IMG/VR virus record: IMGVR_UViG_3300027710_001079
Span: 128,833-192,832 of that record
DNA length: 64,000 bases
Source of the DNA: a virus
Taxonomy: Duplodnaviria; Heunggongvirae; Uroviricota; Caudoviricetes
Direction: 5' to 3' (one strand)
The notes beneath the pieces are model-generated. The model saw only the letters and a program-made list of their open reading frames with translations. It was not told where the DNA came from and did no database searches. Made by a program: the position numbers and the translations under genes. Below, piece by piece: positions 24,200-48,588 of this stretch; the stretch's first letter is position 1, and each line of letters starts with the position of its first letter.

Positions 24200-24206
24200 A
24201 TTATAT

Positions 24207-24285: not shown

Positions 24286-24294
24286 ATAGAAAAC

Positions 24295-24369: not shown

Positions 24370-24374
24370 ATATT

Positions 24375-24449: not shown

Positions 24450-24525
24450 ATAATTAAACAGGTTGCTTTTTTACGTTTTCAATTAAAAGTTGAATGTATT
24501 ATGTTTGCTGAACGCAACCTAAACT

Positions 24526-26167: not shown

Positions 26168-26188
26168 GCCCTTATTTATGTGGTACCG

Positions 26189-26217
26189 TTGTTTTTATAA
26201 TTAAATACAGCTATAAT
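26189..26217 (+). promoter_or_regulatory. sigma70-like promoter for the plus-strand sugar/glycosyltransferase operon
   Basis: TTGTTTttataattaaatacagcTATAAT, spacer 17. The -10 lies 10 nt upstream of the ATG at 26227. Confidence 0.45.
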
Positions 26218-26226
26218 TTTAATACT

Positions 26227-27036: not shown

Positions 27037-27044
27037 GGACATAT

Positions 27045-27695: not shown

Positions 27696-27698
27696 ACT

Positions 27699-30181: not shown

Positions 30182-31185
30182 GAGTATGTGAATGGATAGC
30201 TGATTATCTAAAATCAATCGGTGTTGAACGTGTACACGGATTGATGGGCGGTGGAGCAAGCGGACTCAATGATGGGTTCATTAAGCAGGGTATGCCTTAC
30301 ATTTGTTATCACCATGAACAGGGTGCCGGACATGCAGCAACTGCCGAAAGTAAGTTTACAGGCAAACTTGCTGTAGTTAATCCTACAACAGGATGTGCAG
30401 GTACTAACTGTGCAACTAGTGTATTGAACGCATGGCAAGACAGTGTTCCTGTTTTATTTTTGTCCGGCAATGTTAGATTAGCTACTTGTAGCGGACACAT
30501 TAATAAAAAGAATCATATTAAAATTAGAAAGTATGGTATTCAGGAACATCACATTGTTGATACTTACGAGTCTATGACCAAGTTTAGTTACTTCATCGAT
30601 AATGTTGATGATGTTGCGTATGTCTTACAGTATGCTATTCACACTGCTACTAGTGGTAGACATGGACCTGTATGGATTGATATTCCAGGAGATATACAAA
30701 CTGCACAGATGCCTGAAAAGTATAAAGAGTATCAGCCTGTAGAACTAGTTAAACCATTAGCAGACTTTAGTCGAATCAAAGAAGCGATTGCTAAAGCAGA
30801 ACGTCCTATTGTGTTAGCAGGTTACGGAATTCGTCAAAGCAACACTGTTGAAGATTTTGTTAAGTTTATCGAACATTATCAAATTCCTTATGTTAGTACA
30901 TACGGAGCAAGAGATTACACAGCTAATGATCACAAATTAAGTATCGGTGCTATAGGTATTAAAGGTAGTCGTGCAGGTAACTTTGCTTTACAGAATGCAG
31001 ACTTGTTAATTGTTTTAGGTAGCAGTTTAGGATCAAGTGTAATTGGATATGATCCTGCACAGTTTAGTCCTGCAAGTTACAAAATTATTGTAGACTTAGA
31101 TATCAACGAATTAAAAAAAGATATCGTTAAAATTGACGAGAAGTATAACGTTAACTTAGAAAAATTCTTTAGGAGCATGGTATGA
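30178..31185 (+). CDS. ThDP-dependent enzyme, N-terminal Pyr + middle domains (AHAS/YerE-like), split gene part 1
   Basis: GGASGLNDGF...HEQGAGHAATAESKFTG is the TPP_enzyme_N signature. Confidence 0.65.
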   Translation: MRVCEWIADYLKSIGVERVHGLMGGGASGLNDGFIKQGMPYICYHHEQGAGHAATAESKFTGKLAVVNPTTGCAGTNCATSVLNAWQDSVPVLFLSGNVRLATCSGHINKKNHIKIRKYGIQEHHIVDTYESMTKFSYFIDNVDDVAYVLQYAIHTATSGRHGPVWIDIPGDIQTAQMPEKYKEYQPVELVKPLADFSRIKEAIAKAERPIVLAGYGIRQSNTVEDFVKFIEHYQIPYVSTYGARDYTANDHKLSIGAIGIKGSRAGNFALQNADLLIVLGSSLGSSVIGYDPAQFSPASYKIIVDLDINELKKDIVKIDEKYNVNLEKFFRSMV

Positions 31186-31928
31186 ACAGACAAGAATGGA
31201 TAGACAAATGCGATCACTGGAAAGCTATCTGGCCAGTAATGCAGGAGGAATATCGTCCAACTGATAATCAATTCCAATTAAACATCTATGCTGTACTAGA
31301 TGCAATCAATCAGCATAGTTCAGCTGATGATATTTTAATGGGAGATGCGGGCAGTATTAGCTATGCAGGCCCTGTAGCACTTAATGCCAAACAAGGTCAG
31401 CGTTTTATTTTTAGCCCTGCTCAAGCAGACATGGGATGGGCGTTGCCGGCGGCTGTTGGTGCAAGCCTAGCCAGTAATCAGCCTGTAATCAGCATCATAG
31501 GCGATGGCAGTTTTATGAGCAATGTTCAAGAGTTAGCTGTGGCCAAACAACACGAATTAGATATTAAATTTGTTATATTAAATAATAACGGTTACTTGAG
31601 CATTAAAAATACACAACAAAAATATTTCAATGGCAGAGTACACGGCACTAGCGGTGAAACTGGTCTTTGGTTCCCTAGCATGAAAAATATTGCTACGGCA
31701 TTCGGAATGCCTTGTGTGGATATTAGAACAAAAGAGGATCTGCGACTACACTTTCCTAACGCTCTTAAGAAAAAAGGTCCAGTTATTATCGACTGCCAGT
31801 GCCTGTCTGAACAAGAAATTCTGCCAGCACAAGCATTAAAGGATGGGAAGCAAGCCGGGCTCCACGACATGACTCCGTTCTTAAGTAATGAAGAACTTGC
31901 CCGAGAAATGATTGTTAAGATTACATGA
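31182..31928 (+). CDS. ThDP-dependent enzyme, C-terminal PP domain, split gene part 2
   Basis: GDGSFMSNVQELAVAKQHELDIKFVILNNNGY is the GDG-x24-NN ThDP-binding motif. ATGA overlap with part 1. Confidence 0.65.
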   Translation: MNRQEWIDKCDHWKAIWPVMQEEYRPTDNQFQLNIYAVLDAINQHSSADDILMGDAGSISYAGPVALNAKQGQRFIFSPAQADMGWALPAAVGASLASNQPVISIIGDGSFMSNVQELAVAKQHELDIKFVILNNNGYLSIKNTQQKYFNGRVHGTSGETGLWFPSMKNIATAFGMPCVDIRTKEDLRLHFPNALKKKGPVIIDCQCLSEQEILPAQALKDGKQAGLHDMTPFLSNEELAREMIVKIT

Positions 31929-32710
31929 AGATAGCAGTGTTAGGTGCAGGCGGATTCTTAGGCAAAATTATTTGTGAATACCTAAGAAGTAATGGACATA
32001 CTGTATTTGCTGTTACTCGTCGAGAGTTGACATTAACTGACTATCTATCTGTACAAAAATGGCTAGAGCAAACGTTACCAGATGCTGTTGTTAATTGTGC
32101 AACTTCGGGCGGTAAGCAAAGGATGGGTGATGCTCTGCTAGATGATGTACAGAACAATTTAACTATTTTCCTAAATTTTTATAATAATAGTCAATACTTT
32201 GACAAGTTTATTAATGTAGGGTCTGGTGCAGAGTTTGATCATTCTGCTAACATAGACCTTGCAAAAGAAGATCATATACTTAATGTATTTCCCAAAGACG
32301 GGTATGGGTATGCAAAAAATACGATTTCAAGATTATGTTTAGAACATTCTAAATTTTATACTCTAAGATTGTTTGGGTGCTTTGATAGTAGTGATCCAGA
32401 CTTTAGACTTTTTAAAAAATTTCTTAATAATGATCCGTTAGATCTTGTTGATCGTAAATTTGATTATTTCAGTGCTCAAGATTTTTGTCAAGTAATAGAC
32501 CACTACTTAAATAATCAAGTTGAATACCGCGATATCAATTGCGTGTATAAAGATAAACTTTATCTAAGTGAAATATTAAACAAGTTCAAGCCTGTAGAGA
32601 TTTTAAAAAAATCAAATAATAATTATACCGGTGACGGAAGTAGATTAGCTAAATTAAAATTAAAACTAAACGGATTAGATAAATCTATAAAGGAATATAA
32701 AGCGTTATGA
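31925..32710 (+). CDS. NAD(P)-dependent sugar epimerase/reductase (RmlD-like)
   Basis: MKIAVLGAGGFLGKII Rossmann motif. YGYAK catalytic YxxxK. Confidence 0.55.
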   Translation: MKIAVLGAGGFLGKIICEYLRSNGHTVFAVTRRELTLTDYLSVQKWLEQTLPDAVVNCATSGGKQRMGDALLDDVQNNLTIFLNFYNNSQYFDKFINVGSGAEFDHSANIDLAKEDHILNVFPKDGYGYAKNTISRLCLEHSKFYTLRLFGCFDSSDPDFRLFKKFLNNDPLDLVDRKFDYFSAQDFCQVIDHYLNNQVEYRDINCVYKDKLYLSEILNKFKPVEILKKSNNNYTGDGSRLAKLKLKLNGLDKSIKEYKAL

Positions 32711-33645
32711 AAAAGATTGTGTACGTTACTGGATGTTTGGGATTCATTGGTTATCATGTAACTAAAGCATGTTTAGACAAAGGTTGGTATGTGCGAGGCA
32801 TCGACAAGGGAACTTACGCTGCTAATTGGAATCTATTGCCTGAATTAAAAAAGTATGATACGTTTACTTTTGAACACAAAGATATTAACGACTTAGACAG
32901 GATTTACGACTGTGACTATTTTATTAATACAGCCGCCGAAACTCATGTTGATAACAGTTTAGAAGAAAGCGACACCTTTGTTCACAGCAACATTAACGGT
33001 GTCCATCATATTTTAAAATTAATCAACCAAAAGAAATACCGCAGGCCTATCTTGTTACACTTTAGCACTGATGAAGTCTACGGTGATATTGATGAAGGAA
33101 GTCATTCAGAAGAGGATCTACTGTGTCCTAGTAATCCATACTCAGCAACTAAAGCAGCAGCAGACATGTTGATTATGGCATGGGGACGTAGTCATAAACT
33201 ACCTTACGTTATTGTTCGTCCTACTAACAATTACGGTATTGGACAGTATGTAGAAAAACTTATTCCCAAGACTTGTAAGTTTTTAACTGTGGGTAAAAAG
33301 ATTGATCTTCATAATAACGGAACTCCGGTGCGTACTTGGTTGCACGCCAGCGATACTGCTAATGCAGTTATTACTATTATTGAAGCCGGAGTAGTTAACG
33401 AAATTTACAATATTAGTGGTGCTTATCAGACAGAGAATATTAATGTTGTAAAGAAGATTCTTGAACTATTCAAAGTAAAAGGATCATATGAAAACTACAT
33501 CACTCATATGGATCGTCAGGGACAGGACGTTAGATACAGTATTGACGACAGTAAGTTACAGGCACTAGGTTGGAAACCAAAAGCTGTATTTGATAAAGAA
33601 TTAAAGAAAATTGTTAAGTATTACAAAGACAACTTTATTTGGTAA
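32707..33645 (+). CDS. NDP-hexose 4,6-dehydratase (extended SDR, RmlB/DdhB-like)
   Basis: VYVTGCLGFIGYHV Rossmann motif. YSATKAAAD YxxxK. 312 aa. Confidence 0.6.
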   Translation: MKKIVYVTGCLGFIGYHVTKACLDKGWYVRGIDKGTYAANWNLLPELKKYDTFTFEHKDINDLDRIYDCDYFINTAAETHVDNSLEESDTFVHSNINGVHHILKLINQKKYRRPILLHFSTDEVYGDIDEGSHSEEDLLCPSNPYSATKAAADMLIMAWGRSHKLPYVIVRPTNNYGIGQYVEKLIPKTCKFLTVGKKIDLHNNGTPVRTWLHASDTANAVITIIEAGVVNEIYNISGAYQTENINVVKKILELFKVKGSYENYITHMDRQGQDVRYSIDDSKLQALGWKPKAVFDKELKKIVKYYKDNFIW

Positions 33646-34144
33646 AGCCGTTATTGTAGTTAACATTATCAAACTCTATTAAACTTGCACGAGGATTTTT
33701 AATCCAAAAGTCAACAGCACTAACAACCTGTTGATATGGTATTGAATCATACTGTGTCCAGTTTTCAAGGAATCCCATTTTCAATAACAACATTGGAAAT
33801 TGGGATTCTTTTTTTAATTTCTTGTGTTCAATTTCAATAAGTTTTTTTGCAGTAGCATAACGAATAATGTCTGGATTCGGATAGTCCGCAGCCATTGATC
33901 CGCAAGTTATAATAGAAGTTTTATTATGTAACCGTTTTAGAAAGTCGTATTGTATAGTATGTATATGTAAATTGTTAATGAACAGATCAGCAGTCTCTGC
34001 TAAGTTAACAACTTCTTCAAACTTTTCAGGCAGGTTATAACCATTTGATCTAGACACACCTACAACCTCATGACCTGATTGTGTTAAGTAATTGAAAAAG
34101 GCGAGCCCGAGCCCGCCTGTGTGTCCTGTGATTACAACTCGCAT
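33635..34144 (-). CDS. short-chain dehydrogenase/reductase (truncated SDR fold)
   Basis: VITGHTGGLGLAF (TGxxxGxG) and YATAKK (YxxxK). Confidence 0.5.
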   Translation of the reverse strand: MRVVITGHTGGLGLAFFNYLTQSGHEVVGVSRSNGYNLPEKFEEVVNLAETADLFINNLHIHTIQYDFLKRLHNKTSIITCGSMAADYPNPDIIRYATAKKLIEIEHKKLKKESQFPMLLLKMGFLENWTQYDSIPYQQVVSAVDFWIKNPRASLIEFDNVNYNNGFTK

Positions 34145-34650
34145 CAGCTATTTAAAACTTTTGCCACCGAGTTCATAACAGAAGCGATTCTACCAATATC
34201 ACGTAACTGTTCTACAGTGTAGCCTTCGGTCTTCAATGTTTCGTAATGTGCTTTCACACAGAAATGGCATTTGCCTACAATACTAGCTGCTAAACTAAAT
34301 GCTTCAAAGTTTGACTTAGTAGTTCCACCGTGGTTTGCAATAGCGTTCATACGTAGCTGTGCTGGCAATCCTTTGAGTGCAGGATCATCGGCCATTTCAA
34401 CATATGGATACCACACATTGTTCTGTGCCATGATACTTGCCGCAGTCATTGCCGACTCAGCATGTACAGGTGCATCTGCTAGTAAAATGCTTAATACTTT
34501 ACCGTTGCCAGTTGCAGCCAAAGCAGCCACAGCACAACCTAGGGCAACATCGGCATCTAGCGTACTTCGTACTAATACTGCATCTAGATTTAACTTAGTG
34601 TCCTTAGCATAATCAGGTAATGCACCTTTAATTGTATCAATAAAACTCAT
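34144..34650 (-). CDS. ahpD: AhpD-like alkylhydroperoxidase / carboxymuconolactone decarboxylase family
   Basis: KCHFCVKAHYE is a CxxHC-type AhpD core motif. Lies adjacent to AhpC. Confidence 0.5.
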   Translation of the reverse strand: MSFIDTIKGALPDYAKDTKLNLDAVLVRSTLDADVALGCAVAALAATGNGKVLSILLADAPVHAESAMTAASIMAQNNVWYPYVEMADDPALKGLPAQLRMNAIANHGGTTKSNFEAFSLAASIVGKCHFCVKAHYETLKTEGYTVEQLRDIGRIASVMNSVAKVLNS

Positions 34651-35081
34651 TTTGTCATCTCCGCTAATTGTTTATATCCATTGTATGTAGGATGTACCTT
34701 ATCTTTCGATAGCTCCGGAATTGTCAAAATAGTGTCACCGTAACTGTTAGCAATGATTCTAACAATATCTTGAACTGACGGTTTGATAGGCGGCATAACC
34801 CACATCACTTTTTTTGCATAAATCTGTTGACGCAACAATAATAGTTCTTTAAAACTATTCATAGTGTCCGGGTCGTTAGTTCCAAGACTGATAATAACAG
34901 TGTTGGCAGATAAATCATTAACAATATTTCTATTGTTCCAGGTACGACTGTTAATACCGCTCTTAACAATAGCAACACATTCTTTACGAATTGTGCTAAT
35001 GCCATGAGCGATACTATCGCCTAAGATAAGGCAATCTAACATTACAGAGTCTCGCCGCCTACTGTACGGTTGCAAGCACAC
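34647..35081 (-). CDS. SGNH/GDSL-family hydrolase
   Basis: CLILGDSIAHGI block I GDS(x) motif. Confidence 0.45.
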   Translation of the reverse strand: MCLQPYSRRRDSVMLDCLILGDSIAHGISTIRKECVAIVKSGINSRTWNNRNIVNDLSANTVIISLGTNDPDTMNSFKELLLLRQQIYAKKVMWVMPPIKPSVQDIVRIIANSYGDTILTIPELSKDKVHPTYNGYKQLAEMTK

Positions 35082-35581
35082 AGTTCGCCTGTTTGCAATG
35101 CGTCCAATACACGAAGTGTTTCTTCTGGACTACGACCAACGTTCAAGTTGTTGACAGTAACGTGTTGGATAACGTTTTCTGGGTCAACAATGAATGTTGC
35201 ACGAAGTGCGGCACCTGCTGGAGCGTACATAACGCCCAACTGTTCAATCAAACTCAACTCACCACGCTGTGTGTCTGCGAATTGATTGTGGGTAATCTTA
35301 ACTAGATCACTGTGACTCTTTTGCCATGCTACTTTGCAGAACTCATTGTCTGTACTGCCTGTTAGCAGAACTGCATCACGATCCGCAAAATCACCTGTTA
35401 GCTTGTCGTAGGCTACAATTTCTGTAGGGCAAACAAACGTAAAGTCCTTAGGATAGTAAACGATTACTTTCCACTTGCCTTCAAAGCTCTGGTCTGTAAT
35501 TGTAAAGAATGCATCTTCTGGTTGTCCTGGCTTAACGCCTGTGACTGCAAATGGGGCTAATTTATCGCCGACTGTTTTCAT
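35042..35581 (-). CDS. ahpC: peroxiredoxin (AhpC/TSA 2-Cys family)
   Basis: YPKDFTFVCPTEI peroxidatic-Cys motif. 179 aa. Confidence 0.75.
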   Translation of the reverse strand: MKTVGDKLAPFAVTGVKPGQPEDAFFTITDQSFEGKWKVIVYYPKDFTFVCPTEIVAYDKLTGDFADRDAVLLTGSTDNEFCKVAWQKSHSDLVKITHNQFADTQRGELSLIEQLGVMYAPAGAALRATFIVDPENVIQHVTVNNLNVGRSPEETLRVLDALQTGELCACNRTVGGETL

Positions 35582-36266: not shown

Positions 36267-36406
36267 ATGGAATACTTGGTATGACAACTTGCCAGAGCAT
36301 ACAAAACAATATTTAAAATCTCAACCAATTTGGCACGACATTGACATGTGGAAAGCTGGCATATTGGGTGCAGTAGTAGGGTTCATTCTAGGAGTAATAT
36401 TATAAT
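36263..36406 (+). CDS. hypothetical small membrane protein (47 aa, hand-called)
   Basis: ATG at 36263 overlaps the upstream stop. MSKWNTWYDNLPEHTKQYLKSQPIWHDIDMWKAGILGAVVGFILGVIL. Confidence 0.25.
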
Positions 36407-36740
36407 GGATGTCGTTGAATTAGTAAACAAATATGGCTTCCCTATTGTTATGGCAGTAGGGATGGGATTCATTATCAAGTATGTGTGGGAATGGGCCACT
36501 AAGGAAGTGAAGCCAGTTATATCAGATGCCAACACAGTGTTGATTGCACTGATTGATCGAATACGTATGTTAGACAATGACCTTATCAGACTTAACCAAA
36601 AAGTTAATACAGTATTACATCTACGTGGTAAGACCATTGAGTTTGAACGTGTAGAAGCAGAGAAAGCAATTAATAAGATAGACCGCCCTAAAAGCGAGGG
36701 TAACGAAGATACTAAGTCAGCTGCCTCAGGTGAAAGTTGA
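36407..36740 (+). CDS. small membrane/coiled-coil protein
   Basis: ORF-track frame 36348..36740. Probable start at the internal MDVVELVNKYGFPIVMAVGMGFII (hydrophobic N-terminus). Confidence 0.35.
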
Positions 36741-37212
36741 TTTGAGAAAGTTTTGCTAGATTGTGAAGCCATACGACACCCTCTACGGAGGGTGATCTTA
36801 TGATGTTTGCTGAGTTGCTCTGCACACACTTGACAGTAGGTATTTGATCTTCACTCTTCTGGGCTCTGTACCTTACCCCACCTACTACGACTTTTAAAGG
36901 AACTGCGGTGTCACTGCTCCTATGAGAGTATAGAAAATCTTTTCAACTATTATGACAATCCAAACGTTTCGTGCCAGTGGGCAGACGTTTAAGCATCCTC
37001 TCGGGTAGTGGATTGAAACTGCCTTCGCAATGAGGCTAGGTCAGTGGGTCACACGTCAGAACCTTGACCAACAGAAAGTTACCGGTGCTGTCTCACCTTA
37101 AGTTGCGAATAGTGGGAGTGTGAATGTAAGTGTGTAACTTACATTATACAGGTTATCCAAAATGATCGCGACCGAAATGGCGATCTATTTTGGATTAGTA
37201 GTCCTGTAGATA

Positions 37213-39285
37213 TTACTTACTTGTGGCTATGAATACGCCGTTCCAATCAGCTGGTAGTACTTGTGTCTTTTGGAACTCACAGCGTTCTATCCACATGTCG
37301 TAGTATTTTTTCATTTGCCCGTCGAACTCATGTTTAAGTTCTTCGCACAGCTGAATAGCATCGTCCCATTTCTGCTGTCTATAACACAGGTGCATTTCAT
37401 TGTGAGTCTCTTGTGCTAACAAATATTCAGCAGCAACAGTTACATCAGGATCAAGAACTGTATAGATAGCAACTCCTACTGACTTACCTTTAACAGCTAG
37501 GTCGTCGATCTTAAGGAAGAAGAATTCGTTAGCACAACGTTCAACGGTTGCACCGCCTACTAATAACAAGCATCCGTATTCTTTACACTTACTTTCAATT
37601 CGTGCCGCAGTACTAACAGCATCGCCTAGTACATCGTAACTGTGTCTAGCAGTACTGCCCATCTCACCAATGTAGCCCAGTCCTGTATTAATACCTGCAC
37701 CCATACCAACTGGAGGACGTCCTTGCGGAACAATCACATCTCGGTTAAATGTATCTACAGCTTTAAGCATTTTCAATCCTGTGCGAACTGCTGTTGAAGG
37801 ATGATTAAGATCTTCAATAGGTGCATTGTGTATGTGCATACTAGCATCGCCAATGTACTTGATGATCATACCATCTGCATCTAATACAGGTTGTGTAATA
37901 GCATCCATGTAGCCGTTCATTATTTTTGTAAGTCCTGCAACATCATCGCCGAATGATTCACCTAAGGGTGTAAAACCACGTAAGTCCGAGAACAGTATGC
38001 TGACTTCTTTTTTAACACCTTTCTTGATCAAGTCTGGGTTTTCTTGTAGCAGTCTAACCACTGTAGGACTAGCGTAGCCTGCAAACTGTTTCTTGATTGC
38101 CTGCTTTTGTAAGAATTCGCTTACGAATTTAACTCCGTATGCATGTAATGCCACAAGCAATATGCCACTGACAAAAGCAGTAGCATCAAACAAATAAAGA
38201 TACTGGCTATAAGCATACATGCTGACAGCAACACCACCCACAGAAAGAGCAACCACTGTTCCAAGTCCAACATATACCCACCTTGTTAAAAATAATAATA
38301 GTACACCTGCTGCTAGGAGTACAATAATTTCTACACCATCTGCATAATCCGGACGCTGAATGGTTACATTGTTAATCATTGTGCCTATTACTGCGGCCTG
38401 TACTTCGTGTGGAAATACTGCACCCTTACTAGTAGGTAAAGGATTTGCAATGCCTGCGGCTGTTGGGCCCACGATTACAATCGCACCTGCTAGGTCTTTT
38501 GGAAGATTTAACATACTGACTGATTGACTGGTCTGACTCCAATCAATCCATATGCGACCTAAGTTGTCTGTTGCCACAGGACCAAACTTTGGAATACGCA
38601 TTTTTTCAACGCCACCTTCAAACAGTTTGACCTGGAACGTTGTATCGCCTGCCGCTACGCGGAGTGTCTCCATAGCTAAACTAGGATATAACTTACCGTC
38701 CACTGTGACAATTAACGGCAATCTGCGATTAACACCATCTACTTCTGGCAGTGTGTTTACAATACCAATACCTGCTGCTGCGTTTTCTAACACAGGCACG
38801 TTAGCAATTAGACCTGGATACTGTATGATTTGATCTAAGTGTTCTGGACCTAATACTGCTGAGCCAGGATTACGAGGTTCGTTCTTAGTCTTTTGTGCAG
38901 GAATGCTGCCCAATACTACTGGATATTCTTTTAGAGTTTTACCCAGTTGACTGTCACCACCTGTACGATCTGATTCTGGCATGAGTACGTTGAGTACCAC
39001 AAGGCCCGCTCCCCTCTGATATAAATCTCGTATAAGTCGGGAATACTCAACACGAGGTAACGGCCATTGTCCATATTTGTCTAAGCTCCCTTCATCAATG
39101 TTTACTGTAACAATGTTGTTAACAGTAGTTTCTTTAGCGGTGATTAGCGTATCAAAATAGCGTAGTCTTATACTTTCTACAAAGACAGGATCAGCAATTC
39201 TTATACTTAAAATAAGTGCCAATGTCAGCAGTGCTGTCCATGGACTAGTTAAAATTTTTTTAATTTTTGACATTAGCAGTTCCAA
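37213..39285 (-). CDS. membrane-anchored class III adenylate/guanylate cyclase with CHASE2-like sensor region
   Basis: N-terminal TM, ~350-aa extracytoplasmic region, second TM cluster, then FSDLRGFT...IKYIGDASM cyclase-homology-domain motifs. 690 aa. Confidence 0.65.
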   Translation of the reverse strand: MELLMSKIKKILTSPWTALLTLALILSIRIADPVFVESIRLRYFDTLITAKETTVNNIVTVNIDEGSLDKYGQWPLPRVEYSRLIRDLYQRGAGLVVLNVLMPESDRTGGDSQLGKTLKEYPVVLGSIPAQKTKNEPRNPGSAVLGPEHLDQIIQYPGLIANVPVLENAAAGIGIVNTLPEVDGVNRRLPLIVTVDGKLYPSLAMETLRVAAGDTTFQVKLFEGGVEKMRIPKFGPVATDNLGRIWIDWSQTSQSVSMLNLPKDLAGAIVIVGPTAAGIANPLPTSKGAVFPHEVQAAVIGTMINNVTIQRPDYADGVEIIVLLAAGVLLLFLTRWVYVGLGTVVALSVGGVAVSMYAYSQYLYLFDATAFVSGILLVALHAYGVKFVSEFLQKQAIKKQFAGYASPTVVRLLQENPDLIKKGVKKEVSILFSDLRGFTPLGESFGDDVAGLTKIMNGYMDAITQPVLDADGMIIKYIGDASMHIHNAPIEDLNHPSTAVRTGLKMLKAVDTFNRDVIVPQGRPPVGMGAGINTGLGYIGEMGSTARHSYDVLGDAVSTAARIESKCKEYGCLLLVGGATVERCANEFFFLKIDDLAVKGKSVGVAIYTVLDPDVTVAAEYLLAQETHNEMHLCYRQQKWDDAIQLCEELKHEFDGQMKKYYDMWIERCEFQKTQVLPADWNGVFIATSK

Positions 39286-39557
39286 CGACTTAATGCTTTG
39301 GCTTTTGGAGTAGGGCGTCCCTTCTCGTCTTTCATTGGTCCTTTGTTACCCGACATACGAGCACAGAAACTCTTACGGCGTTTTGCATCCTTGCTGCCTG
39401 CTTTTAATTTACTAGGCTTAGTAGTAACTGCTGTTTTTAATTTACTACCTGGATTCTCTCTACGATAAGCATTAACAGCTTTTTGACTTAGGCCGTCTGT
39501 CTTATCTTTTCTATTGACTTTATTCCAGTCTTCATTAATAAATTCGTGTGCTCTCAT
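39273..39557 (-). CDS. hypothetical basic protein
   Basis: ORF-track 94 aa. Lys/Arg-rich. Confidence 0.35.
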   Translation of the reverse strand: MRAHEFINEDWNKVNRKDKTDGLSQKAVNAYRRENPGSKLKTAVTTKPSKLKAGSKDAKRRKSFCARMSGNKGPMKDEKGRPTPKAKALSRWNC

Positions 39558-40099
39558 TGTCTTAAATCCTGCGGTGAACTGTTGGGAACATGATTAGGAC
39601 CATAACTGATCCTGCTGCCCGTAATCTTTTCCAATGCAACATGCAGACTTGGTCCGGTTAAATTCTTACGTAACCATTTCTCTGCTAGGTTGTTAATAAT
39701 CTTTTCATTACTTTGTGCTCTTCCGGGGCTCTTACTATGAACATATGCGTGATATGCTTCGTGTACTGCTACTCCAATATCACTCGCGGCATGACTTTCA
39801 AGATTTGGCAAATTAATGCTACCGCCCTCACCTTGATCACCTGTGGCTCTAAACATAGGAGGCTCCGAACTTTGATACACATAGTACATACCTGGTTCTA
39901 ATTCGTCCTCGTCGTCTGTGACATTACCGGCACCTAGTATGTTTTTGATTGCATCTATACAAGACCATAAGGTAGGTGCAGGTTGTCTCGGTAATTGAGT
40001 AGTTGGTAACATAGGCTTGTCTTCGGGATCAAAGTCACCCCAGCGTTGCCTTAATTCCGCATCACTTGCTTCTGCTTCTAGTAGTTCTTGTATTCGCAT
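39554..40099 (-). CDS. putative zinc metallopeptidase (HExxH)
   Basis: VAVHEAYHAYVH contains an HExxH motif. 181 aa. Confidence 0.3.
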   Translation of the reverse strand: MRIQELLEAEASDAELRQRWGDFDPEDKPMLPTTQLPRQPAPTLWSCIDAIKNILGAGNVTDDEDELEPGMYYVYQSSEPPMFRATGDQGEGGSINLPNLESHAASDIGVAVHEAYHAYVHSKSPGRAQSNEKIINNLAEKWLRKNLTGPSLHVALEKITGSRISYGPNHVPNSSPQDLRQ

Positions 40100-40106
40100 G
40101 ATGTAT

Positions 40107-40976
40107 TTACTTTAATTTTGTATCCAAATACAGTGCTGCACCCACACTTGATCCGGCATCGCCTGGATTTTTTGGAACATAGGTATGTTTAAATGTAGAT
40201 GAAAGTAGACGTTTTGCAGGCACATTATAAGCACAACCGCCTGTAAAAACGCAGGAATTACTGTGAAAAGATGCAAGTTTAAAGCAATTTTTTATCTGTT
40301 CCATGAACACACGCTGTACGCTGGCAGCTACGTCTGCACGATCTTTTTCTGCTACTTCCCAATCCCAAATTCCTTTGTGTAGATTCTTTGTTAGATAGCT
40401 GCTGACTTTTAAGTAGTTTGGTTCCCAGTCTCCAGAAGTTGCAAGTGCAGTTAGTTTACTTTCTTCTTGGACGGGTTTAAATCCCAGTAACTCTGTAAAT
40501 GCTGTATAAAATAAACCGAGACTAAAAGGATAACTTTTTGAAAATACTTTTTTAAATTTTTGATCTCGATAATGCCAGATACTCACAGTATCCCACTCGC
40601 CGATTGCATCAGCTACTACAACCGCAGTTTCTGTTAATCCACTTTCATATACAGCATTTGCTGCATGACTTAAATGATGCGGCACACAGTAGATTGGAAC
40701 AGATGGTATATTAAATTTTTTTAGGTAGAAGTATGGCAACTGATTGATACTAAATGCATCTCTGTATTGTCCTGCATATAGTTGTCTTGATTTTTTAATC
40801 CAAGGTTGTTCGTACCAAGCAATTGCATCTATTGGAGCATATGACAATGCACGAGCAACTATTTCTGGACATAAGTCGACTCCGCAGAGAGAGCGTTCAT
40901 GATGTAGTATTTGACCGTCGTGAATAACTGCAACACTTGCATCGTGATTTAGAGCATTTATTCCTAGTATATTCAT
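40107..40976 (-). CDS. carbamoyltransferase N-terminal (Kae1/NodU-like) domain protein
   Basis: MNILGINALNHDASVAV...VPHHLSHAANA matches the NodU/CmcH N-domain. 289 aa (about half the length of full carbamoyltransferases). Confidence 0.45.
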   Translation of the reverse strand: MNILGINALNHDASVAVIHDGQILHHERSLCGVDLCPEIVARALSYAPIDAIAWYEQPWIKKSRQLYAGQYRDAFSINQLPYFYLKKFNIPSVPIYCVPHHLSHAANAVYESGLTETAVVVADAIGEWDTVSIWHYRDQKFKKVFSKSYPFSLGLFYTAFTELLGFKPVQEESKLTALATSGDWEPNYLKVSSYLTKNLHKGIWDWEVAEKDRADVAASVQRVFMEQIKNCFKLASFHSNSCVFTGGCAYNVPAKRLLSSTFKHTYVPKNPGDAGSSVGAALYLDTKLK

Positions 40977-41082
40977 TTGTAAATGAAAGGGTCTCGTTTG
41001 CGAAACTCTTTTAATTTCTTACGTATACGCCTACGCTCTTGAAAATGACGATATAGAGATATAATAAAATTCATATCTCTAT

Positions 41083-42837
41083 TTATTGTTGTTTAACTGT
41101 GGTGTTACATCCTGATAAAATTGCACAACTCTGTATTAGAGTAAAGTTCTTGCCGCCGCCTTGTTCTAGATCAACAGTTGCTGCACCGCCAGCATTAGTT
41201 ACATCAATCTGTGCATTGTTTGCATTTGCACCATATTGATTAACTTTTACATTATGCCCGTTACCAGTCATTCTAACATCAAGGTAGTGTTGGCCTGCAC
41301 CTGATTGAGTAGTAGTTAGGGTGTTGCTATCACCGTTGACTGTGCTAAACAACAATCTGTTATTGTTATTATTCTGCGTATGATTTACAGAGTTGTTATT
41401 ACCGTTAATAGTAGTTTCGGCATAGTTAGTACCAATAGTATTTGTTTGATTGGTAGTAAGACTATTTTGATAACCATTAACATCTGCTTTAAGATAGTTT
41501 GATCCAATCTGTGTAAGATTTAAATTATTAGTGCCAGCTCCGTCCAAAGTTAGTTCTACTCTGTTCTTTGTGCCAGACAACGAGATAGTTACGTTATTAT
41601 TATCCCCACCTATCTGATCAACATACACTGCATTGCTGTATGGTGCTGGACTATTAGCCCAAGTATTGATTCTAGTTTGTTGTGATGTTCTGCTAGAATT
41701 ATTGACATAAGTACCGCCACTTTGTATAGTTTGATTTGAAGGTGCGTTAGTCTGAGTGATTGTTCCGCCTACTACTGTTGGACCGCAATCGGCACAGATA
41801 CTGCCGGATGTTCCTGGATTGCTCGGAGTACCTCCTGATCCAGTAGCTGTTGAAGTTACTCCGTCATTTAGATCGTAATAAAAAGTGACTTCAGCAATCT
41901 GCATACTGTCGCAATTTAATCCACACCCATCGCCTGACTTAGTTGTGGGAAATAATATAAAATAGTAAACATAGGCATTTGTATTTGCTACCATGATTTC
42001 TGGACTTGTCCAAAAACGTTGCTCACTTAAAGTCACAGTGTCTTGTTTGATCAATACCCAATTAACCCCGTCATTACTGCCGTAGAGTTTATAGCTGGTA
42101 GGATCTCGTCCACTGAAGTCATTAGCAGTGGTCAATGTGAATTTTTGTACTACACGACCTTGACTTAATTTAACAGTAACACCTGCGTTTTTCTTATCAA
42201 AGTTCAAATACTTAGTTCCAGAGTTTCCGTCAAATGCTTGTGTTGCACCTTCGCCGGCAGGGCTATTATTACTTGTTGGATAGATGTTACTGATCACAAC
42301 TGGGGAGCTAGTAGTTCTAATAGGTTGCCAGTTGACTGTTGGAGTCGGCGGTGCTGCTGTCTGTCCTGCTGCTAGTGGAGTTGAACTAGCATAGGTATAA
42401 TTGTTTAAGTCTGTGCTAGTAACACTAGTATCCATATTAGTAAAACTAGCACTCGAACCGTAGCTGTAGCCTTGGGCGGTAGTAATAACATTGCCAAAGA
42501 ATCCACTACCAATGTAAAAAATAGCACCATTACCCAAGGCAGTGATATCACCGTGATCGTGTACAATGCTATGCTGTGTGCCGTTGCTGTTCATTAACTT
42601 TAATCCGTGCTTACCCGGATTAGTTGTGCTGTCAAAGAATTGAAAGTATTGACCTGCGGTAACCGTTACTGTTTGAAAGTTTTTATTGTAAGGTGCAATG
42701 AAGTTACTGGCGTTTAAAGTAGTGCCGCTCCAATAATATTGTACATCAAATATTTGATTGATACCAAACTTGCCGTCAGTGATGGCACCAAAGGCATTAG
42801 AGCATAACAGTAACAGTGCTAGAAATATTTTCTTCAT
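41083..42837 (-). CDS. secreted protein with discoidin (F5/8 type C) domain and C-terminal curlin-like Q/N-rich repeats
   Basis: Signal peptide. GEGATQAFDGNSGTKYLNFD...YKLYGSNDGVNWVL is discoidin-like. The C-terminus has TQIGSNY/NGYQNS/INGNNNS repeats. Confidence 0.5.
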   Translation of the reverse strand: MKKIFLALLLLCSNAFGAITDGKFGINQIFDVQYYWSGTTLNASNFIAPYNKNFQTVTVTAGQYFQFFDSTTNPGKHGLKLMNSNGTQHSIVHDHGDITALGNGAIFYIGSGFFGNVITTAQGYSYGSSASFTNMDTSVTSTDLNNYTYASSTPLAAGQTAAPPTPTVNWQPIRTTSSPVVISNIYPTSNNSPAGEGATQAFDGNSGTKYLNFDKKNAGVTVKLSQGRVVQKFTLTTANDFSGRDPTSYKLYGSNDGVNWVLIKQDTVTLSEQRFWTSPEIMVANTNAYVYYFILFPTTKSGDGCGLNCDSMQIAEVTFYYDLNDGVTSTATGSGGTPSNPGTSGSICADCGPTVVGGTITQTNAPSNQTIQSGGTYVNNSSRTSQQTRINTWANSPAPYSNAVYVDQIGGDNNNVTISLSGTKNRVELTLDGAGTNNLNLTQIGSNYLKADVNGYQNSLTTNQTNTIGTNYAETTINGNNNSVNHTQNNNNNRLLFSTVNGDSNTLTTTQSGAGQHYLDVRMTGNGHNVKVNQYGANANNAQIDVTNAGGAATVDLEQGGGKNFTLIQSCAILSGCNTTVKQQ

Positions 42838-43949
42838 CGTTGTGTTATAGTAATAATAGTATTACCGCCCGAATTTACTCTATTACTAAATTCAATACTA
42901 CCTTGAATTTGTGTAATTAAACTATTTTGAGTCAACGGAGTAGTTACACACTGTATGTCACTGCCGTTGTCGCGGCATAGACCAATTTGTCCTTCATCCT
43001 TAGTTACAATAATACCGCTGCTTCGTCTCCAATCTGGTAGCACACTGTCCACATCGTCTTTTAAGTAATCTTCATCTAGCCCACTGCCTATAATATCAAA
43101 TAGACTATCTAGAAAATGATTTTCTAGAAAGTTACGACTTAGTCGATCTTGAAAAAATTGTGCGTTTTGTTTTTCCAAGGCATTTTCGTCTAGCCCTGAG
43201 AATTTTAAAAAGTCAATATCTAGCAAACTTCGTTGTTCGTAATCACTGCGTCTAGTTTCAGTTAGTTCTCTCGGCGGACTTAAAATAAGAATATTGCTGA
43301 TAGCATCTTCGGACAAGTTCAATATTACTGGGGTCCTAGGAACTTGACTTCTACTGGCCACAGTAGTTGCTTGAAATGCCTGATTCATTATGACTTGACC
43401 AACATCTGTTTCAACAATAATAGTGCCCACTACACAGTTGCTGTTAACTTCGTCTCTGTTACGTACTGGTTTGTCATTGGGACAACTTGGTAACAGAATA
43501 ATAGTGCTGGCCCCTACTTCATCTACTGTGGCGGTAAAATCAGTACCACGAACTGAGATAGTAGCAGTAGGTGTATTAACGGCAACGTTTTGCGGGCTGT
43601 TCTTGGCAATTTGTCCACTGGCATATCTAACAGTGCCCAATGCAACCTTAACACCCAGCTTACCGGATTTTGATTTTGGATCATAAACAAAGTCGTCGAT
43701 TACTAATCTCGAATTCTCATTGACCTGTACTCGAGTCTGATCTTCGAATGTTATGCCTACCTTGCCCACTGCTGTTTTCACAGAGTCGTTCATTTCCACT
43801 CCCGTGCCCTTGGCTCCGGTCAGTGTGGCATTCTTCCGCTGTATACTGGGAGGGGTGTTCAGCAACTCTGTCACTGTTCCGATACTGGCTTGACTGTTCA
43901 GCGAGGTACTGATCAATAAGCCTAATAAGATTAAGCGACATAGTTTCAT
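42834..43949 (-). CDS. secreted protein (FecR-like beta-sandwich?)
   Basis: Signal peptide MKLCRLILLGLLISTSLNSQA. 371 aa. Confidence 0.3.
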   Translation of the reverse strand: MKLCRLILLGLLISTSLNSQASIGTVTELLNTPPSIQRKNATLTGAKGTGVEMNDSVKTAVGKVGITFEDQTRVQVNENSRLVIDDFVYDPKSKSGKLGVKVALGTVRYASGQIAKNSPQNVAVNTPTATISVRGTDFTATVDEVGASTIILLPSCPNDKPVRNRDEVNSNCVVGTIIVETDVGQVIMNQAFQATTVASRSQVPRTPVILNLSEDAISNILILSPPRELTETRRSDYEQRSLLDIDFLKFSGLDENALEKQNAQFFQDRLSRNFLENHFLDSLFDIIGSGLDEDYLKDDVDSVLPDWRRSSGIIVTKDEGQIGLCRDNGSDIQCVTTPLTQNSLITQIQGSIEFSNRVNSGGNTIITITQR

Positions 43950-43957
43950 TTCACACC

Positions 43958-44737
43958 TTAATTACCAGTGGTAATGCTGTATGTGTTTCCGCTTCCTGCT
44001 ACAGCAAGATTAACATTGGTATTGATACTACCACTCTGTACAACTGTGGTATTGTTATTTGATCCATTGATATTCAATGTTGCAATGTGACCATCGGCAC
44101 CACCACCACTTTGGGTAATGTTAGTTGCGTTACTAGCACCTAATATAGTTAAATCTACTGTGCCTTTTGCACCAGTTAAATTTAACGTAGTGTTGTTTGC
44201 AGTTCCACCAGTCTTATTAATGTTTACACTAACTTGATCCGCATTGATTGTAGCAACGATTTGATTCAAGTTGCCGTCTGTTACAGCACTAAAGGTGTTG
44301 TTAGATCCTAGCATATTAAGATTGGCAATAGTATTGTCACCTGTTTGATCAATAGAAACAGTGTTACTATTTGCAGTACCCTGTTCGCTATTGTTCATAT
44401 TGATTGTACCAATACCGTTATTACCAGTTACTCGATATAGAATACTAGTATCAACGCCGCCACTAGCTGTGGCAGTTACAACGCCTAGATTTAAAATGTT
44501 ACCACTACCAACTTGTTCAACAGTCAAAGTTACGTTGTCGCCTTTGATTTTTGACGGGGTAGTGTTGCCCGTGCCCGTGCCTTGAATTCCTCGGATACGG
44601 TTTGTTGCACCATCCTGTAGCATGGTGATAACAGAGTTGTCGCCTGTTTGATCAATATAGATACTATTGTCTGCTGCGAAAACTTGTGAAGCGAACAACA
44701 TCACGATCGCTGTCATTACTTGATTTAGCTTCTTCAT
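43958..44737 (-). CDS. curlin-repeat amyloid subunit (CsgA/CsgB-like)
   Basis: Signal peptide. Repeated (S/I)-x-Q-x-G-x-x-N units, e.g. IDQTGDNSV, VEQVGSGNI, SIDQTGDNTI. Confidence 0.55.
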   Translation of the reverse strand: MKKLNQVMTAIVMLFASQVFAADNSIYIDQTGDNSVITMLQDGATNRIRGIQGTGTGNTTPSKIKGDNVTLTVEQVGSGNILNLGVVTATASGGVDTSILYRVTGNNGIGTINMNNSEQGTANSNTVSIDQTGDNTIANLNMLGSNNTFSAVTDGNLNQIVATINADQVSVNINKTGGTANNTTLNLTGAKGTVDLTILGASNATNITQSGGGADGHIATLNINGSNNNTTVVQSGSINTNVNLAVAGSGNTYSITTGN

Positions 44738-44794
44738 ATATTTCTTCAGTTCTTTTGAAACTGCTCCTTGGGGTGTTATTTGTTGCTCCCCGAT

Positions 44795-45709
44795 TTACTT
44801 GGCCCTAACTTCTTTGCTTCCTCCAGCATCTTTCTCGTTGCTGGGCTGTGTCGTTGCGGCTGTGCCTTGTGGGGCTCTTTCGCTTTCGGTGTTCTTTTGA
44901 ACCAACTCATTTTTTTCTCCCTTATAGTCCCAAAGCCCTTTACGAGCTCCTTCTTTAATAAGTTCAACCACGCCTGCTTCAATTGCTGATTTTACAGCAT
45001 ATGTTCCCGGCTCGTTTATTGTAAATCCTGCTTCACCTTCGAATGCTCTGGTGCCCATGTCAAAGAATTTAAGAGCAGTTACAGCATCGGCAGAACTGAG
45101 AATAGTTTTCTGTACAGTCACTGACGCTAATATTTTACCAGTATTAACACTCACCGCTCTTATACTGATAGTCACAACATCTTGACTCCACTGTGTTTGC
45201 TTACCGATGCCGAACACTCTAGCACCGAGGCCGCCGCTTTTTGTTGAGCTATCATAGCCCACAATACCACCTTCAATAATCATTCCAGCAAATTGCATTG
45301 GCATCAAAGGTTTAGCACTTGGCCCCTCATACGCTTCACGCATCTGTCTAATGATTAATCTTTCTTTGGTTAAATTATCAAGCCCTACACGCTCAACAAC
45401 ATCAAACCATTGTCCTTTGCCTACATCCTGTAATGCCTTGATCAAAAACGATTCTGCACCCTGTGTCACTGCCATTGACAAACTAGCAATGTTACTCTGC
45501 GGACGTCTCTGTCCTGTCATATCTCTAAAACTGTATACAGCCACACTCACAGGTTTGCCGCCAGCCGGTGCAGGAATAGTATCAAATTCTTTCTGCATCA
45601 TTACTTTTGCTACTTCAGGCTTGTCTGCCTCCACTAAAGGATTATTTTGATGTATTGCACAGCCAGACAACAGTGTTACGATCGCCAGTGTTAATAATGT
45701 CTTTTTCAT
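44795..45709 (-). CDS. csgG: curli production assembly/transport lipoprotein CsgG
   Basis: Lipobox LLSGCA. IPAPAGGKPVSVAVYSF..TGQ, WFDVVERVGLDNL..ER.IIR and GYDSSTKSGGLGARVFGIGKQTQ...VNTGKILASV...KTILS align block-by-block with E. coli CsgG. Confidence 0.85.
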   Translation of the reverse strand: MKKTLLTLAIVTLLSGCAIHQNNPLVEADKPEVAKVMMQKEFDTIPAPAGGKPVSVAVYSFRDMTGQRRPQSNIASLSMAVTQGAESFLIKALQDVGKGQWFDVVERVGLDNLTKERLIIRQMREAYEGPSAKPLMPMQFAGMIIEGGIVGYDSSTKSGGLGARVFGIGKQTQWSQDVVTISIRAVSVNTGKILASVTVQKTILSSADAVTALKFFDMGTRAFEGEAGFTINEPGTYAVKSAIEAGVVELIKEGARKGLWDYKGEKNELVQKNTESERAPQGTAATTQPSNEKDAGGSKEVRAK

Positions 45710-45710
45710 A

Positions 45711-46190
45711 TTATTTTCCTGGAATTACAAATTGGCTTAGGGGAATATCAATAGTTGTATTAATATCAGGACCAACTACGGTTAAACGAATCATATCTCC
45801 GTTCACCAAATCAGAAATTTTTTCCCACTTGATTTTACTTCCTTGGAAGTCTACTTCACCTGAACAAGTTGTTGACGTTGTAGTGCAACCACTGTTGGCA
45901 AACATAGCTGTAGCTACGTTTTGACTAATCTGTGCATAAATTCTAGATTCTAAGTTGTTTAAAAACTTAGCTAAGTTAGTATTCTTTTTATCAGCGGCTT
46001 CTTTATCAATGGCCGCTTGGATTTTGTCTTGAAGAGCTTTACGACGAGTAGCTTCTTGATTCTCAATCGTCAAGACGTGACTGCTATATCCTATGCCGTT
46101 GAAAGCAGGACTTTTAAAAGTAAAGTCGTTTATTGGTGCAGCCTGTGCAGTCATCGCAGACAAGGCCAGGCTGAGAATTAAAAATCGCAT
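45711..46190 (-). CDS. csgF: curli assembly protein CsgF-like
   Basis: Signal peptide, then TFKSPAFNGIGYSS (compare E. coli TFQFRNPNFGGNPNNG). Size ~140 aa mature, immediately upstream of csgG. Confidence 0.55.
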   Translation of the reverse strand: MRFLILSLALSAMTAQAAPINDFTFKSPAFNGIGYSSHVLTIENQEATRRKALQDKIQAAIDKEAADKKNTNLAKFLNNLESRIYAQISQNVATAMFANSGCTTTSTTCSGEVDFQGSKIKWEKISDLVNGDMIRLTVVGPDINTTIDIPLSQFVIPGK

Positions 46191-46266
46191 CCTAAGTCCC
46201 CAGTGTAGTGTATTAGTATTTACTAGGGTGGAATGAGAAATTTAAGCAGCAGTTTATTAATCTAGA

Positions 46267-47919: not shown

Positions 47920-48588
47920 TTATTTACCAATTTCAGGGAACAGCACTTGATCAACAAACTGCCGAATAGTTGTTTCTGGAACGCCCATTGCAATCATACT
48001 GCGGTACACATGCGGATTCTGTTTCTGATTTTGACAGTAGTAATTTTGCCGCTCAGTAACATCAACTCCGTTAATCCTGTCTCCTATATTATGCAGGTAG
48101 TAATCTAGGGTTTTAATCCCTAAATCAACAAGATTATCTAATTCTGTTTGCTCACTGATGTTGCCCGCGGCTACCATTGCAGGACTAAAAATATTGCGGG
48201 CCCATTCCGGTAGTTCGCGTTGTTTATTCCAGGTTATGCTACTGGCAGTTTCTTTAAACCATTCGTGCATATAATGACTGTCGTTTACAAGACTAAAGTC
48301 GTGAAACGCACCAGTAATCTTATTCTTACCACAAACGGCATCAAATCCCCAAATAGGACTAGGATCGTCTACGTGTGGGAACACTGTTGCATGTAGAATA
48401 TATATTCCGTGTGTTGCAGTTTTATCTACTACTTCAACGTGCCCTCTACGGAACAGGTTGCTGTGGTATACGTGATTTTCCCAGTCGTATTGATCTAAGC
48501 TAGGATCTTCTGCTCTGTAACCTGCATGTTCCATCATAGACTGCATCGTTTCGGCACACTGCCGCATCTGTGTCCATACTGTGCTCAT
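47920..48588 (-). CDS. ferredoxin-dependent bilin reductase (FDBR; PebB/PcyX-like)
   Basis: VDKTATHGIYILHATVFPHVDDPSPIWGFDAVCGKNKITGAFHDFS is the FDBR core. Paralog of the adjacent gene. Confidence 0.6.
   Translation of the reverse strand: MSTVWTQMRQCAETMQSMMEHAGYRAEDPSLDQYDWENHVYHSNLFRRGHVEVVDKTATHGIYILHATVFPHVDDPSPIWGFDAVCGKNKITGAFHDFSLVNDSHYMHEWFKETASSITWNKQRELPEWARNIFSPAMVAAGNISEQTELDNLVDLGIKTLDYYLHNIGDRINGVDVTERQNYYCQNQKQNPHVYRSMIAMGVPETTIRQFVDQVLFPEIGK

Follow-up and report, generated by a model that had tools for sequence, protein, structure and literature searches.

A predicted receptor-type adenylate cyclase at the end of a curli-like secretion gene cluster in a T4-like phage

Why would a tailed phage encode a membrane-anchored nucleotidyl cyclase with a periplasmic sensor, and which process would such an enzyme serve? 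The question is raised by a gene in a 64,000-nucleotide (nt) stretch of phage DNA, hereafter the window (IMG/VR record IMGVR_UViG_3300027710_001079, positions 128,833-192,832; Caudoviricetes), which a preliminary description had read as a CHASE2-like sensor joined to a class III cyclase domain. The present analysis supports that architecture and, with moderate confidence, places the protein as a receptor-type adenylate cyclase (AC) that would form the signalling arm of a curli-like secretion module (type VIII secretion system, T8SS), with a FecR-domain protein as co-sensor and cyclic AMP (cAMP) as output. Coordinates are window positions, and cyclase residues are numbered in the frame of 690 amino acids (aa) unless the 686-aa numbering is stated.

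Architecture and catalytic residues of the cyclase

The uninterrupted open reading frame (ORF) of 690 aa described earlier is present on the minus strand at 37213..39285, starting from a TTG at 39285. The ATG at 39273 is its fifth codon, and the A of this ATG is the final base of the TAA stop of the upstream gene (TAATG). Because of this overlap, and because a protein 100% identical to the 686-aa product (P0001) is present in public metagenomes, the shorter form is the likelier coding sequence (Table 1).

Both domain assignments of the preliminary description were borne out by a Pfam search, in which CHASE2 (PF05226) was matched at E 3.3e-39 and 135.4 bits against a cutoff of 26.3, over profile positions 3-256 of 257, and Guanylate_cyc (PF00211) at E 1.9e-15 and 57.4 bits against a cutoff of 21.9. 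The protein also matched 39 cyclase sequences of the Protein Data Bank (PDB) at E<=1e-3, and a search of NCBIfam gave no match. Hydropathy peaks at aa 16-34, 317-335, 337-359 and 364-386, all helices in the AlphaFold2 (AF2) model, leave a CHASE2 domain of ~280 aa between the first and the remainder, so that two transmembrane regions do flank a large extracytoplasmic domain, the second region being made of three helices that return the chain to the cytoplasm. After the transmembrane block, in a linker that was aligned to 6fht/Cya2, come a long helix and 'FAGYASPTVVRLLQENPDLIKKG' (aa 401-423), a segment of transducer-like character. The catalytic domain follows, in which the FSDLRGFT and IGDA motifs reported earlier were located at 432-439 and 478-481.

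The AF2 model, built with 26 diverse homologs, has a mean predicted local distance difference test (pLDDT) score of 90.4, with CHASE2 modelled as a mixed alpha/beta domain of high pLDDT. Compared with solved cyclases by Foldseek, the modelled catalytic domain gave TM-scores of 0.83-0.89 and root-mean-square deviations of 2.2-2.8 Å, including 0.89 for CyaB (3r5g), 0.86 for Cya2 (2w01) and 0.84 for CyaC (1wc0). The C-terminal ~80 aa matched no Pfam family; full-length alignments show this extension kept from phages to the CHASE2-cyclases of Bradyrhizobium and missing from phage HTVC008M. Its near-invariant residues in alignment A1 are R664, W677, G679 and K686 (686-aa numbering), and the model places helices at 615-668.

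Alignment to CyaC, CyaB and Cya2 identified D434 (in FSD) and D480 (in IGD) as the metal-binding Asp pair, K476/D551 as the purine-specifying pair, R562 as the transition-state Arg and S558 as the ribose-contacting position, which is usually Asn (roles of class III residues, including the Asn-ribose contact, from PMC3591389). The cyclase assignment thus stands on a PF00211 match with both metal-binding Asp residues in place. The earlier suggestion of a cAMP or cyclic GMP (cGMP) generator survives in its first half: since Lys476/Asp551 is an ATP-type pair (PMC3591389), cAMP is the likelier product and cGMP a less likely one. Specificity for guanylate was rejected, as the Lys/Asp pair is present in place of Glu with Cys/Ser/Gly. 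The phage-made enzyme would be inserted into the host inner membrane with CHASE2 facing the periplasm, and its cytoplasmic domain is predicted to convert ATP to cAMP. Like all class III enzymes, it should do so as a dimer of identical subunits whose interface would hold two active sites.

The secretion gene cluster and the FecR-CHASE2 pairing

The cyclase stands at the end of a co-directional cluster that runs CsgF, CsgG, curlin-repeat protein (p259), FecR-domain protein, second curlin-like protein (p584) and cyclase, and the five envelope proteins of the module all begin with a signal peptide or lipobox. This order is shared by the Methylophilales phage Melnitz and the Pelagibacter phage HTVC008M, whose FecR and second curlin slots are in part annotated as hypothetical, and by independent metagenome contigs. 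Among 64 related viral loci with >=6 kb of sequence upstream of the cyclase, 62 have CsgF, CsgG and FecR co-directionally upstream of it, 53 have a p259 homolog and 44 a p584 homolog. Exceptions to this synteny are locus L053, in which the cluster is adjacent but inverted, and locus L041, in which the cyclase has no detectable Csg/FecR genes upstream.

At E 9.6e-11, a profile of 21 phage p259 homologs matched the 'Curlin associated repeat-containing protein' of PDB entry 8c50; p259 is thus a true curlin-repeat protein, and a fibre subunit is present, contrary to the Melnitz paper (PMC9004378). Pfam Curlin_rpt matched p259 in four stretches, all sub-threshold, and a single-sequence AF2 model of this protein (pLDDT 49.7) contained short beta-strands only and was too poor for a fold search. 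Protein p584, whose C-terminus gave Curlin_rpt matches below threshold only, occupies the module's variable slot for a 'second fibre/adhesin'.

The position of the cyclase at the end of a conserved T8SS cluster with a FecR partner speaks for a part in sensing or regulation inside the module and not for free-standing manipulation of the host, such as the effect on catabolite or virulence signalling proposed in the preliminary description. A general host-takeover enzyme is an unlikely alternative, in which raised host cAMP would reprogram catabolite/CRP-type regulation and proximity to T8SS genes would reflect hitch-hiking in a hypervariable region. The protein does have the residues expected of a competent adenylate cyclase, the pelagimyophage region between the replication and structural modules has been described as hypervariable (PMC7029224), and both the three unrelated genes between the cyclase and the T8SS genes of the window and the L041 cyclase are in line with such a role. 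However, synteny with CsgF, CsgG and FecR in 62/64 loci holds over cyclases down to ~35% identity and over phages of different hosts, which is hard to obtain by hitch-hiking in a region otherwise without synteny. The adjacency of FecR and CHASE2 also recurs independently in bacteria, and purifying selection on the periplasmic sensor implies a regulated rather than constitutive output.

The bacterial adjacency was surveyed by scanning hidden Markov models built from the phage proteins over 77 CHASE2-cyclase loci within a range of 8 kb. A FecR-domain ORF was found within this distance (<=8 kb) in 28/77 loci, 20 of the neighbours being within 300 bp and 12 directly upstream and co-directional; Pfam confirmed FecR in 6/6 of those tested. 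The scan detected neither CsgG nor CsgF nor a curlin-like gene near the cyclase at any of the 77 loci. The pairing of FecR with a CHASE2-cyclase is therefore old and cellular, and its union with T8SS genes occurs only in phages in this sample. Since FecR genes flank bacterial CHASE2-cyclases in this way, the FecR-domain protein of the module probably pairs with the CHASE2 sensor in the periplasm rather than regulating iron. The nearest cellular homologs of the phage cyclase itself are at <=34% identity and mostly alphaproteobacterial. In Bradyrhizobium lablabi (locus L087, 3335-7888), a FecR domain is fused into a 1517-aa cadherin-like/Big_9/RTX adhesin-type protein beside the CHASE2-cyclase, and similar giant FecR ORFs are present in other Bradyrhizobium loci (L089, L103 and L157). 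This fusion recalls the phage order, in which FecR is followed by a secreted lectin/repeat protein.

Cellular systems offer precedents for parts of this arrangement. The Sinorhizobium meliloti cyclases CyaD1, CyaD2 and CyaK (PMC5498481) share the CHASE2 and class III cyclase architecture and the alphaproteobacterial affinity, and differ in being cellular, in responding to a plant signal, in controlling root infection, in having no T8SS linkage and in having a receptor, Clr (CRP-like), encoded beside the cyclase. Removal of CHASE2 from CyaD1 results in constitutive cAMP production, and a FecR-domain gene, SMc02177, lies beside cyaD1 (SMc02176), as placed by locus-tag numbering (PMC5498481). The Burkholderia 'BiofilmReg' operon (PMC5192318) encodes a response regulator, a LysM/FecR periplasmic protein, a CHASE2 histidine kinase and a DUF4136 protein, and resembles the phage module in that a secreted FecR-domain protein adjoins a CHASE2 membrane sensor and in its link to a surface/biofilm phenotype; it differs in its histidine kinase output, in the absence of curli genes and in being bacterial.

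The favoured reading, of an adenylate cyclase that serves the T8SS module, can be set out as follows. CsgF, the CsgG pore, the curlin-repeat fibre subunit, the FecR-domain protein, the lectin/curlin-like protein and the cyclase would be expressed as one co-directional block, co-transcription being suggested by the tight gene packing and by the overlap of the cyclase start with the preceding stop. The secreted FecR-domain protein would most likely act as periplasmic partner or ligand-presenting subunit of CHASE2. From the example of CyaD1 in Sinorhizobium, this domain is expected to repress the enzyme until a signal arrives. Cyclase activity would in this scheme be governed by the condition of the envelope or of fibre export, and the resulting cAMP would act on a receptor of the host or the phage.

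Several observations weigh against this reading. The FecR neighbour is present in just 36% of the sampled bacterial loci, and in S. meliloti, the best-studied system, SMc02177 was dispensable for perceiving the one plant signal tested (PMC5498481). Three unrelated inserts (39273-40976) split the cyclase from the rest of the window's module, and scans of 36300-47000 for sigma-70 promoters (26 vs 26.2 in shuffled sequence) and intrinsic terminators (5 vs 6.9) were uninformative, so that the argument for co-transcription comes from gene packing only. No cAMP receptor resembling CRP turned up among the window ORFs (best E 1.8), in a weak test with E. coli CRP as the query and 64 kb of a genome of >=190 kb covered. 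Finally, S558 stands in place of the canonical Asn and could lower activity or alter the chemistry.

The preliminary description had also raised interference with cyclic-nucleotide-based antiphage signalling, and a cyclase that floods or mimics the signals of Pycsar- or CBASS-type immunity remains the least probable of the roles considered, to be regarded as very improbable. The catalytic domain is indeed hit by PADLOC models of the Pycsar cyclase PycC (best E 6.4e-14, 49.8 bits), a likeness at the level of the class III cyclase fold that scores below the Pfam cyclase family itself (57.4 bits). Neighbouring genes are those for DUF6321, p181 and a carbamoyltransferase fragment, none of them a defence or anti-defence gene, and PADLOC gave no match for the FecR protein, p181 or p548. 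The Lys/Asp pair, an adenine-type combination, predicts cAMP and not the cyclic CMP or cyclic UMP of Pycsar, and neither a periplasm-facing sensor nor a fixed association with secretion genes has a rationale in such a role. Membership of Pycsar or CBASS was rejected, as the PycC match is at fold level only and no cyclic-nucleotide-activated effector (transmembrane or TIR) is adjacent.

The cyclase is a divergent member of a viral gene class that had already been described, and the novelty implied by the preliminary description was overstated. The homologs in the records of HTVC008M (2013; AGE60353) and Melnitz (2021; QZI94833) were already annotated as adenylate/guanylate cyclase, and a viral T8SS module with FecR and AC was published in 2022 from pelagiphage podo- and myoviruses (Wittmers et al.; PMC9599517). 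That study treated FecR, a histidine kinase and the adenylate cyclase as non-canonical, putatively regulatory T8SS members, reported an AC phylogeny pointing to Alphaproteobacteria and expression of the module in metatranscriptomes, and estimated viral T8SS at ~0.1% of assembled viral proteins in GOV2.0; it never names CHASE2 and reads FecR through iron regulation (PMC9599517). The Melnitz (PMC9004378) and pelagimyophage (PMC7029224) papers discuss the curli genes and do not mention the cyclase, and clumping was not seen in the Melnitz study. A literature search on the phrase 'phage-encoded adenylate cyclase' returned nothing, and the cultured-phage collection searched for podophage T8SS modules, whose histidine kinase was to be checked for CHASE2, contained none.

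The pelagiphage T8SS cyclases (HTVC008M, Melnitz and the 'AC' of Wittmers et al.) share with the window gene full-length homology, last-gene position and a T4-like Kyanoviridae-type background. The window lineage is distinguished by its 37 tRNAs, related contigs of 190-380 kb and the three genes before the cyclase; in the nucleotide pocket, the window and Melnitz-like sequences have Asp+Ser, whereas HTVC008M has the ancestral Ser+Asn and no C-terminal extension. Modest additions made here are the recognition of the sensor as CHASE2, the pairing of FecR with CHASE2 and the clade with the Asp/Ser pocket. Phage curli-type modules are abundant in aquatic viruses, with the cyclase alone at 408 IMG/VR loci, and the hosts studied so far (Pelagibacter, OM43) have no curli genes. 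A CHASE2 receptor with FecR as its likely partner would provide the module with a specific regulatory logic that is open to testing, and ties it to the tractable CyaD1/Clr system of Sinorhizobium and the FecR/CHASE2-kinase system of Burkholderia. What CHASE2 binds is a long-standing question, and a small phage module with so few partners may be well suited to answering it.

A broader proposal is offered as a tentative conjecture. FecR-domain proteins and CHASE2 may constitute a widespread, unrecognised two-part periplasmic sensor of surface fibre or adhesin export with interchangeable outputs (cyclase or histidine kinase), which phages captured together with curli-type secretion, turning the state of export or envelope into a cAMP pulse that would time late infection. 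Under this proposal, the clade with Asp551 and Ser558 would represent a retuned or product-shifted pocket of this viral lineage.

Pocket substitutions and selection

All 87 viral homologs have D434, K476, D480 and R562; D551 occurs in 85/87 of them, and so does S558. Across 141 diverse representatives of the CHASE2-cyclase family, D434, D480 and R562 are present in all and K476 in 140/141; at position 551 they have Ser (104), Thr (31) or Asp (6), and at position 558 Asn (133), Ser (6) or Asp (2). Asp551 and Ser558 are carried by the same six sequences, which form one clade in a rough neighbour-joining tree, nested within a set of ~680-aa sequences that retain the ancestral state, and Ser/Thr+Asn is kept in HTVC008M and in the rearranged locus L053. 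Judged from these alignments, one viral clade has undergone a coupled active-site change from Ser/Thr+Asn to Asp+Ser, which is fixed and does not represent decay.

The solved cyclases used for comparison, Spirulina CyaC (1wc0) and P. aeruginosa CyaB (3r5g), both soluble class IIIb ACs, and the Synechocystis guanylate cyclase Cya2 (2w01), share the fold, the metal-binding Asp residues, the Lys and the Arg with the phage protein. They lack CHASE2 and a membrane anchor, and they have Thr (Gly in Cya2) at the second specificity position and Asn at the ribose position, in contrast to Asp551 and Ser558 of the phage protein.

Selection on the cyclase was estimated from the ratio of nonsynonymous to synonymous substitution rates (dN/dS, omega) against relatives, which was 0.06-0.15 overall; taken separately, the sensor, the catalytic and the C-terminal parts gave 0.05-0.2. 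In the close comparisons, the strongest purifying selection within the protein is on the catalytic domain (omega ~0.05). A decaying pseudogene was rejected on the overall dN/dS and the invariant catalytic residues. Between the homolog at 2950-5016 of locus L009 and the window cyclase, dS is ~1.4 in the CHASE2/transmembrane half and ~0.27 in the catalytic/C-terminal half, a half-by-half mosaic that suggests recombination swapping sensor halves between lineages.

These values also bear on the possibility, considered rather improbable, that members of the Asp551/Ser558 clade are not standard adenylate cyclases, and either make another cyclic nucleotide or have strongly attenuated catalysis and serve mainly as sensor or scaffold. 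The two substitutions always co-occur and are confined to one clade (6/141 representatives). In mammalian AC, substitution of the ribose-contacting Asn strongly reduces kcat. The Asn of most sequences at position 558 is the residue that usually makes this contact (PMC3591389). Nevertheless, ATP specificity is classically set by Lys/Asp in class IIIa cyclases, both metal-binding Asp residues and the Arg are invariant, and Ser would still be able to donate a hydrogen bond. Strong constraint on the catalytic domain and fixation of the variant in 85/87 viral sequences do not form a pattern of decay either.

Phage background, neighbouring genes and a downstream RNA

The window belongs to a T4-like myophage. 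That the cyclase is phage-encoded, as the preliminary description held, follows from the presence of rIIA and rIIB (Table 1), an array of 37 tRNA genes, relatives in the Kyanoviridae and 408 IMG/VR viral loci with relatives of the cyclase, on contigs of up to 364 kb. A bacterial origin of the window was ruled out by rIIA/rIIB, the tRNA array and the viral contigs. Among cultured phages, the cyclase has its nearest relatives in two T4-like members of the Kyanoviridae, Melnitz (51.5% identity) and HTVC008M (34.5%, aa 32-608); a contig of 193 kb encodes an identical protein, and contigs of 229 kb and 381 kb encode proteins 97% identical to it. Megablast of the cyclase region against cultured phages returned only a 65-nt match at chance level, and thus no relative among them at the nucleotide level. 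The lineage is divergent, and is probably a large, tRNA-rich T4-like group.

Table 1. Features of the window discussed in the text, with the evidence for each
Feature	Position	Strand	Details
CHASE2-class III cyclase (predicted adenylate cyclase), coding sequence	37213..39273	-	686 aa from ATG 39273
Periplasmic CHASE2 sensor domain	38302..39222	-	aa 22-328, Pfam PF05226; first transmembrane helix, aa ~16-34, before it
Three transmembrane helices returning the chain to the cytoplasm	38128..38337	-	aa ~317-386; hydropathy, AF2 model
Class III nucleotidyl cyclase catalytic domain	37480..38013	-	aa 425-602, Pfam PF00211
Conserved C-terminal extension	37216..37458	-	aa 610-690; three helices and terminal motif ...DW.GV..AT.K
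CsgF	45711..46190	-	Pfam PF10614, E 5.9e-08
CsgG outer-membrane secretion channel lipoprotein	44795..45709	-	Pfam PF03783, E 2.3e-49; lipobox LSGC
Curlin-repeat (CsgA/B-like) secreted protein p259	43958..44737	-	259 aa; profile vs PDB; signal peptide
FecR-domain protein	42834..43949	-	371 aa; Pfam PF04773, E 1.3e-10; signal peptide by inspection
Secreted protein p584	41083..42837	-	584 aa; signal peptide, F5/8 type C (discoidin-like) domain, Asn/Gln/Gly-rich C-terminal repeats
Carbamoyltransferase N-terminal-domain protein	40107..40976	-	289 aa; truncated vs 528-position PHROG profile; lineage-specific insert
p181, no family match	39554..40099	-	181 aa; lineage-specific insert
DUF6321 protein	39273..39557	-	94 aa; stop overlaps cyclase start (TAATG); lineage-specific insert
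Candidate structured RNA, core ~360 nt	36748-37103	-	12-sequence alignment: 12 helices, 63 pairs
rIIA	58203-60377		
rIIB	57149-58225		

The tRNA array occupies 16 kb (8975-24599, minus strand), with 37 genes predicted by ARAGORN and 34 by Rfam. It covers 19/20 amino acids, tRNA-His being absent from the predictions and tRNA-Ile(tat) included, and contains unusually long predictions of 90-95 nt for Pro (8975-9064), Ile (18368-18459) and Ser (23230-23324). At its edge, a 471-aa protein (6990-8405, minus strand) is a full-length match to phrog_850, 'RNA-binding protein' (E 2.5e-141). Two related viral contigs, L172 (5917-6379) and L173 (2676-3154), carry permuted transfer-messenger RNA (tmRNA) genes of betaproteobacterial type, at 110 bits against a gathering score of 84, which hints that this phage group infects hosts of the Betaproteobacteria type, as Melnitz does.

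The non-coding stretch of ~470 nt between the cyclase stop and the convergent gene has a conserved part at 36741-37195. It is 92.7% identical to that of locus L040, whose cyclase is just 67% identical in protein, a conservation exceeding that of the flanking genes, and an exact 22-mer from it is common to 13 viral contigs. In the alignment of its core, 95.7% of cells are paired, compared with 37-43% when the partners are slid, and 29 pairs are changed on both sides compared with 3-9 in the slid controls; 0/500 shuffles reach the observed values. The consensus fold is at -47.0 kcal/mol on the cyclase-sense strand and -34.2 on the other. This RNA lies 0-870 nt past the cyclase stop in six loci and otherwise among tRNA genes, and is near the betaproteobacterial-type tmRNA genes in two loci. 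Rfam 15, searched with the RNA of the window and of nine homolog loci, gave no family, the best match being the Polynucleobacter-1 RNA at a non-significant E of 0.41. From its pattern of paired changes, it looks like a candidate undescribed structured RNA of this phage group.

The carbamoyltransferase homolog of the window consists of the N-terminal domain alone and is an insertion specific to this sublineage, placed after the T8SS genes and ahead of the cyclase. Upstream of the T8SS cluster, a heme oxygenase and two ferredoxin-dependent bilin reductase genes (47920-49788, minus strand) form a pigment-biosynthesis cassette in a phage that is not cyanophage-like in appearance; in the 64 related loci, heme oxygenase is present in 41 and bilin reductase in 46. 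The unannotated p548 (46267-47913) lies between these genes and CsgF, and a beta-ketoacyl-ACP synthase (FabF/B-like, with both Pfam domains) is encoded at 49789-51015 on the minus strand.

On the other side of the cyclase, a block of genes of sugar/lipopolysaccharide (LPS)-modification type (26158-33645, plus strand) includes DegT-type aminotransferases, a split thiamine pyrophosphate-dependent enzyme, two epimerase/dehydratases and a GT34 glycosyltransferase, and the GC content falls at 32-34 kb. It is followed at 34144-35581 (minus strand) by genes for an AhpC/TSA peroxiredoxin and then a carboxymuconolactone-decarboxylase (AhpD-like) family protein, which are kept in close relatives and look like a phage-borne peroxide-detoxification pair.

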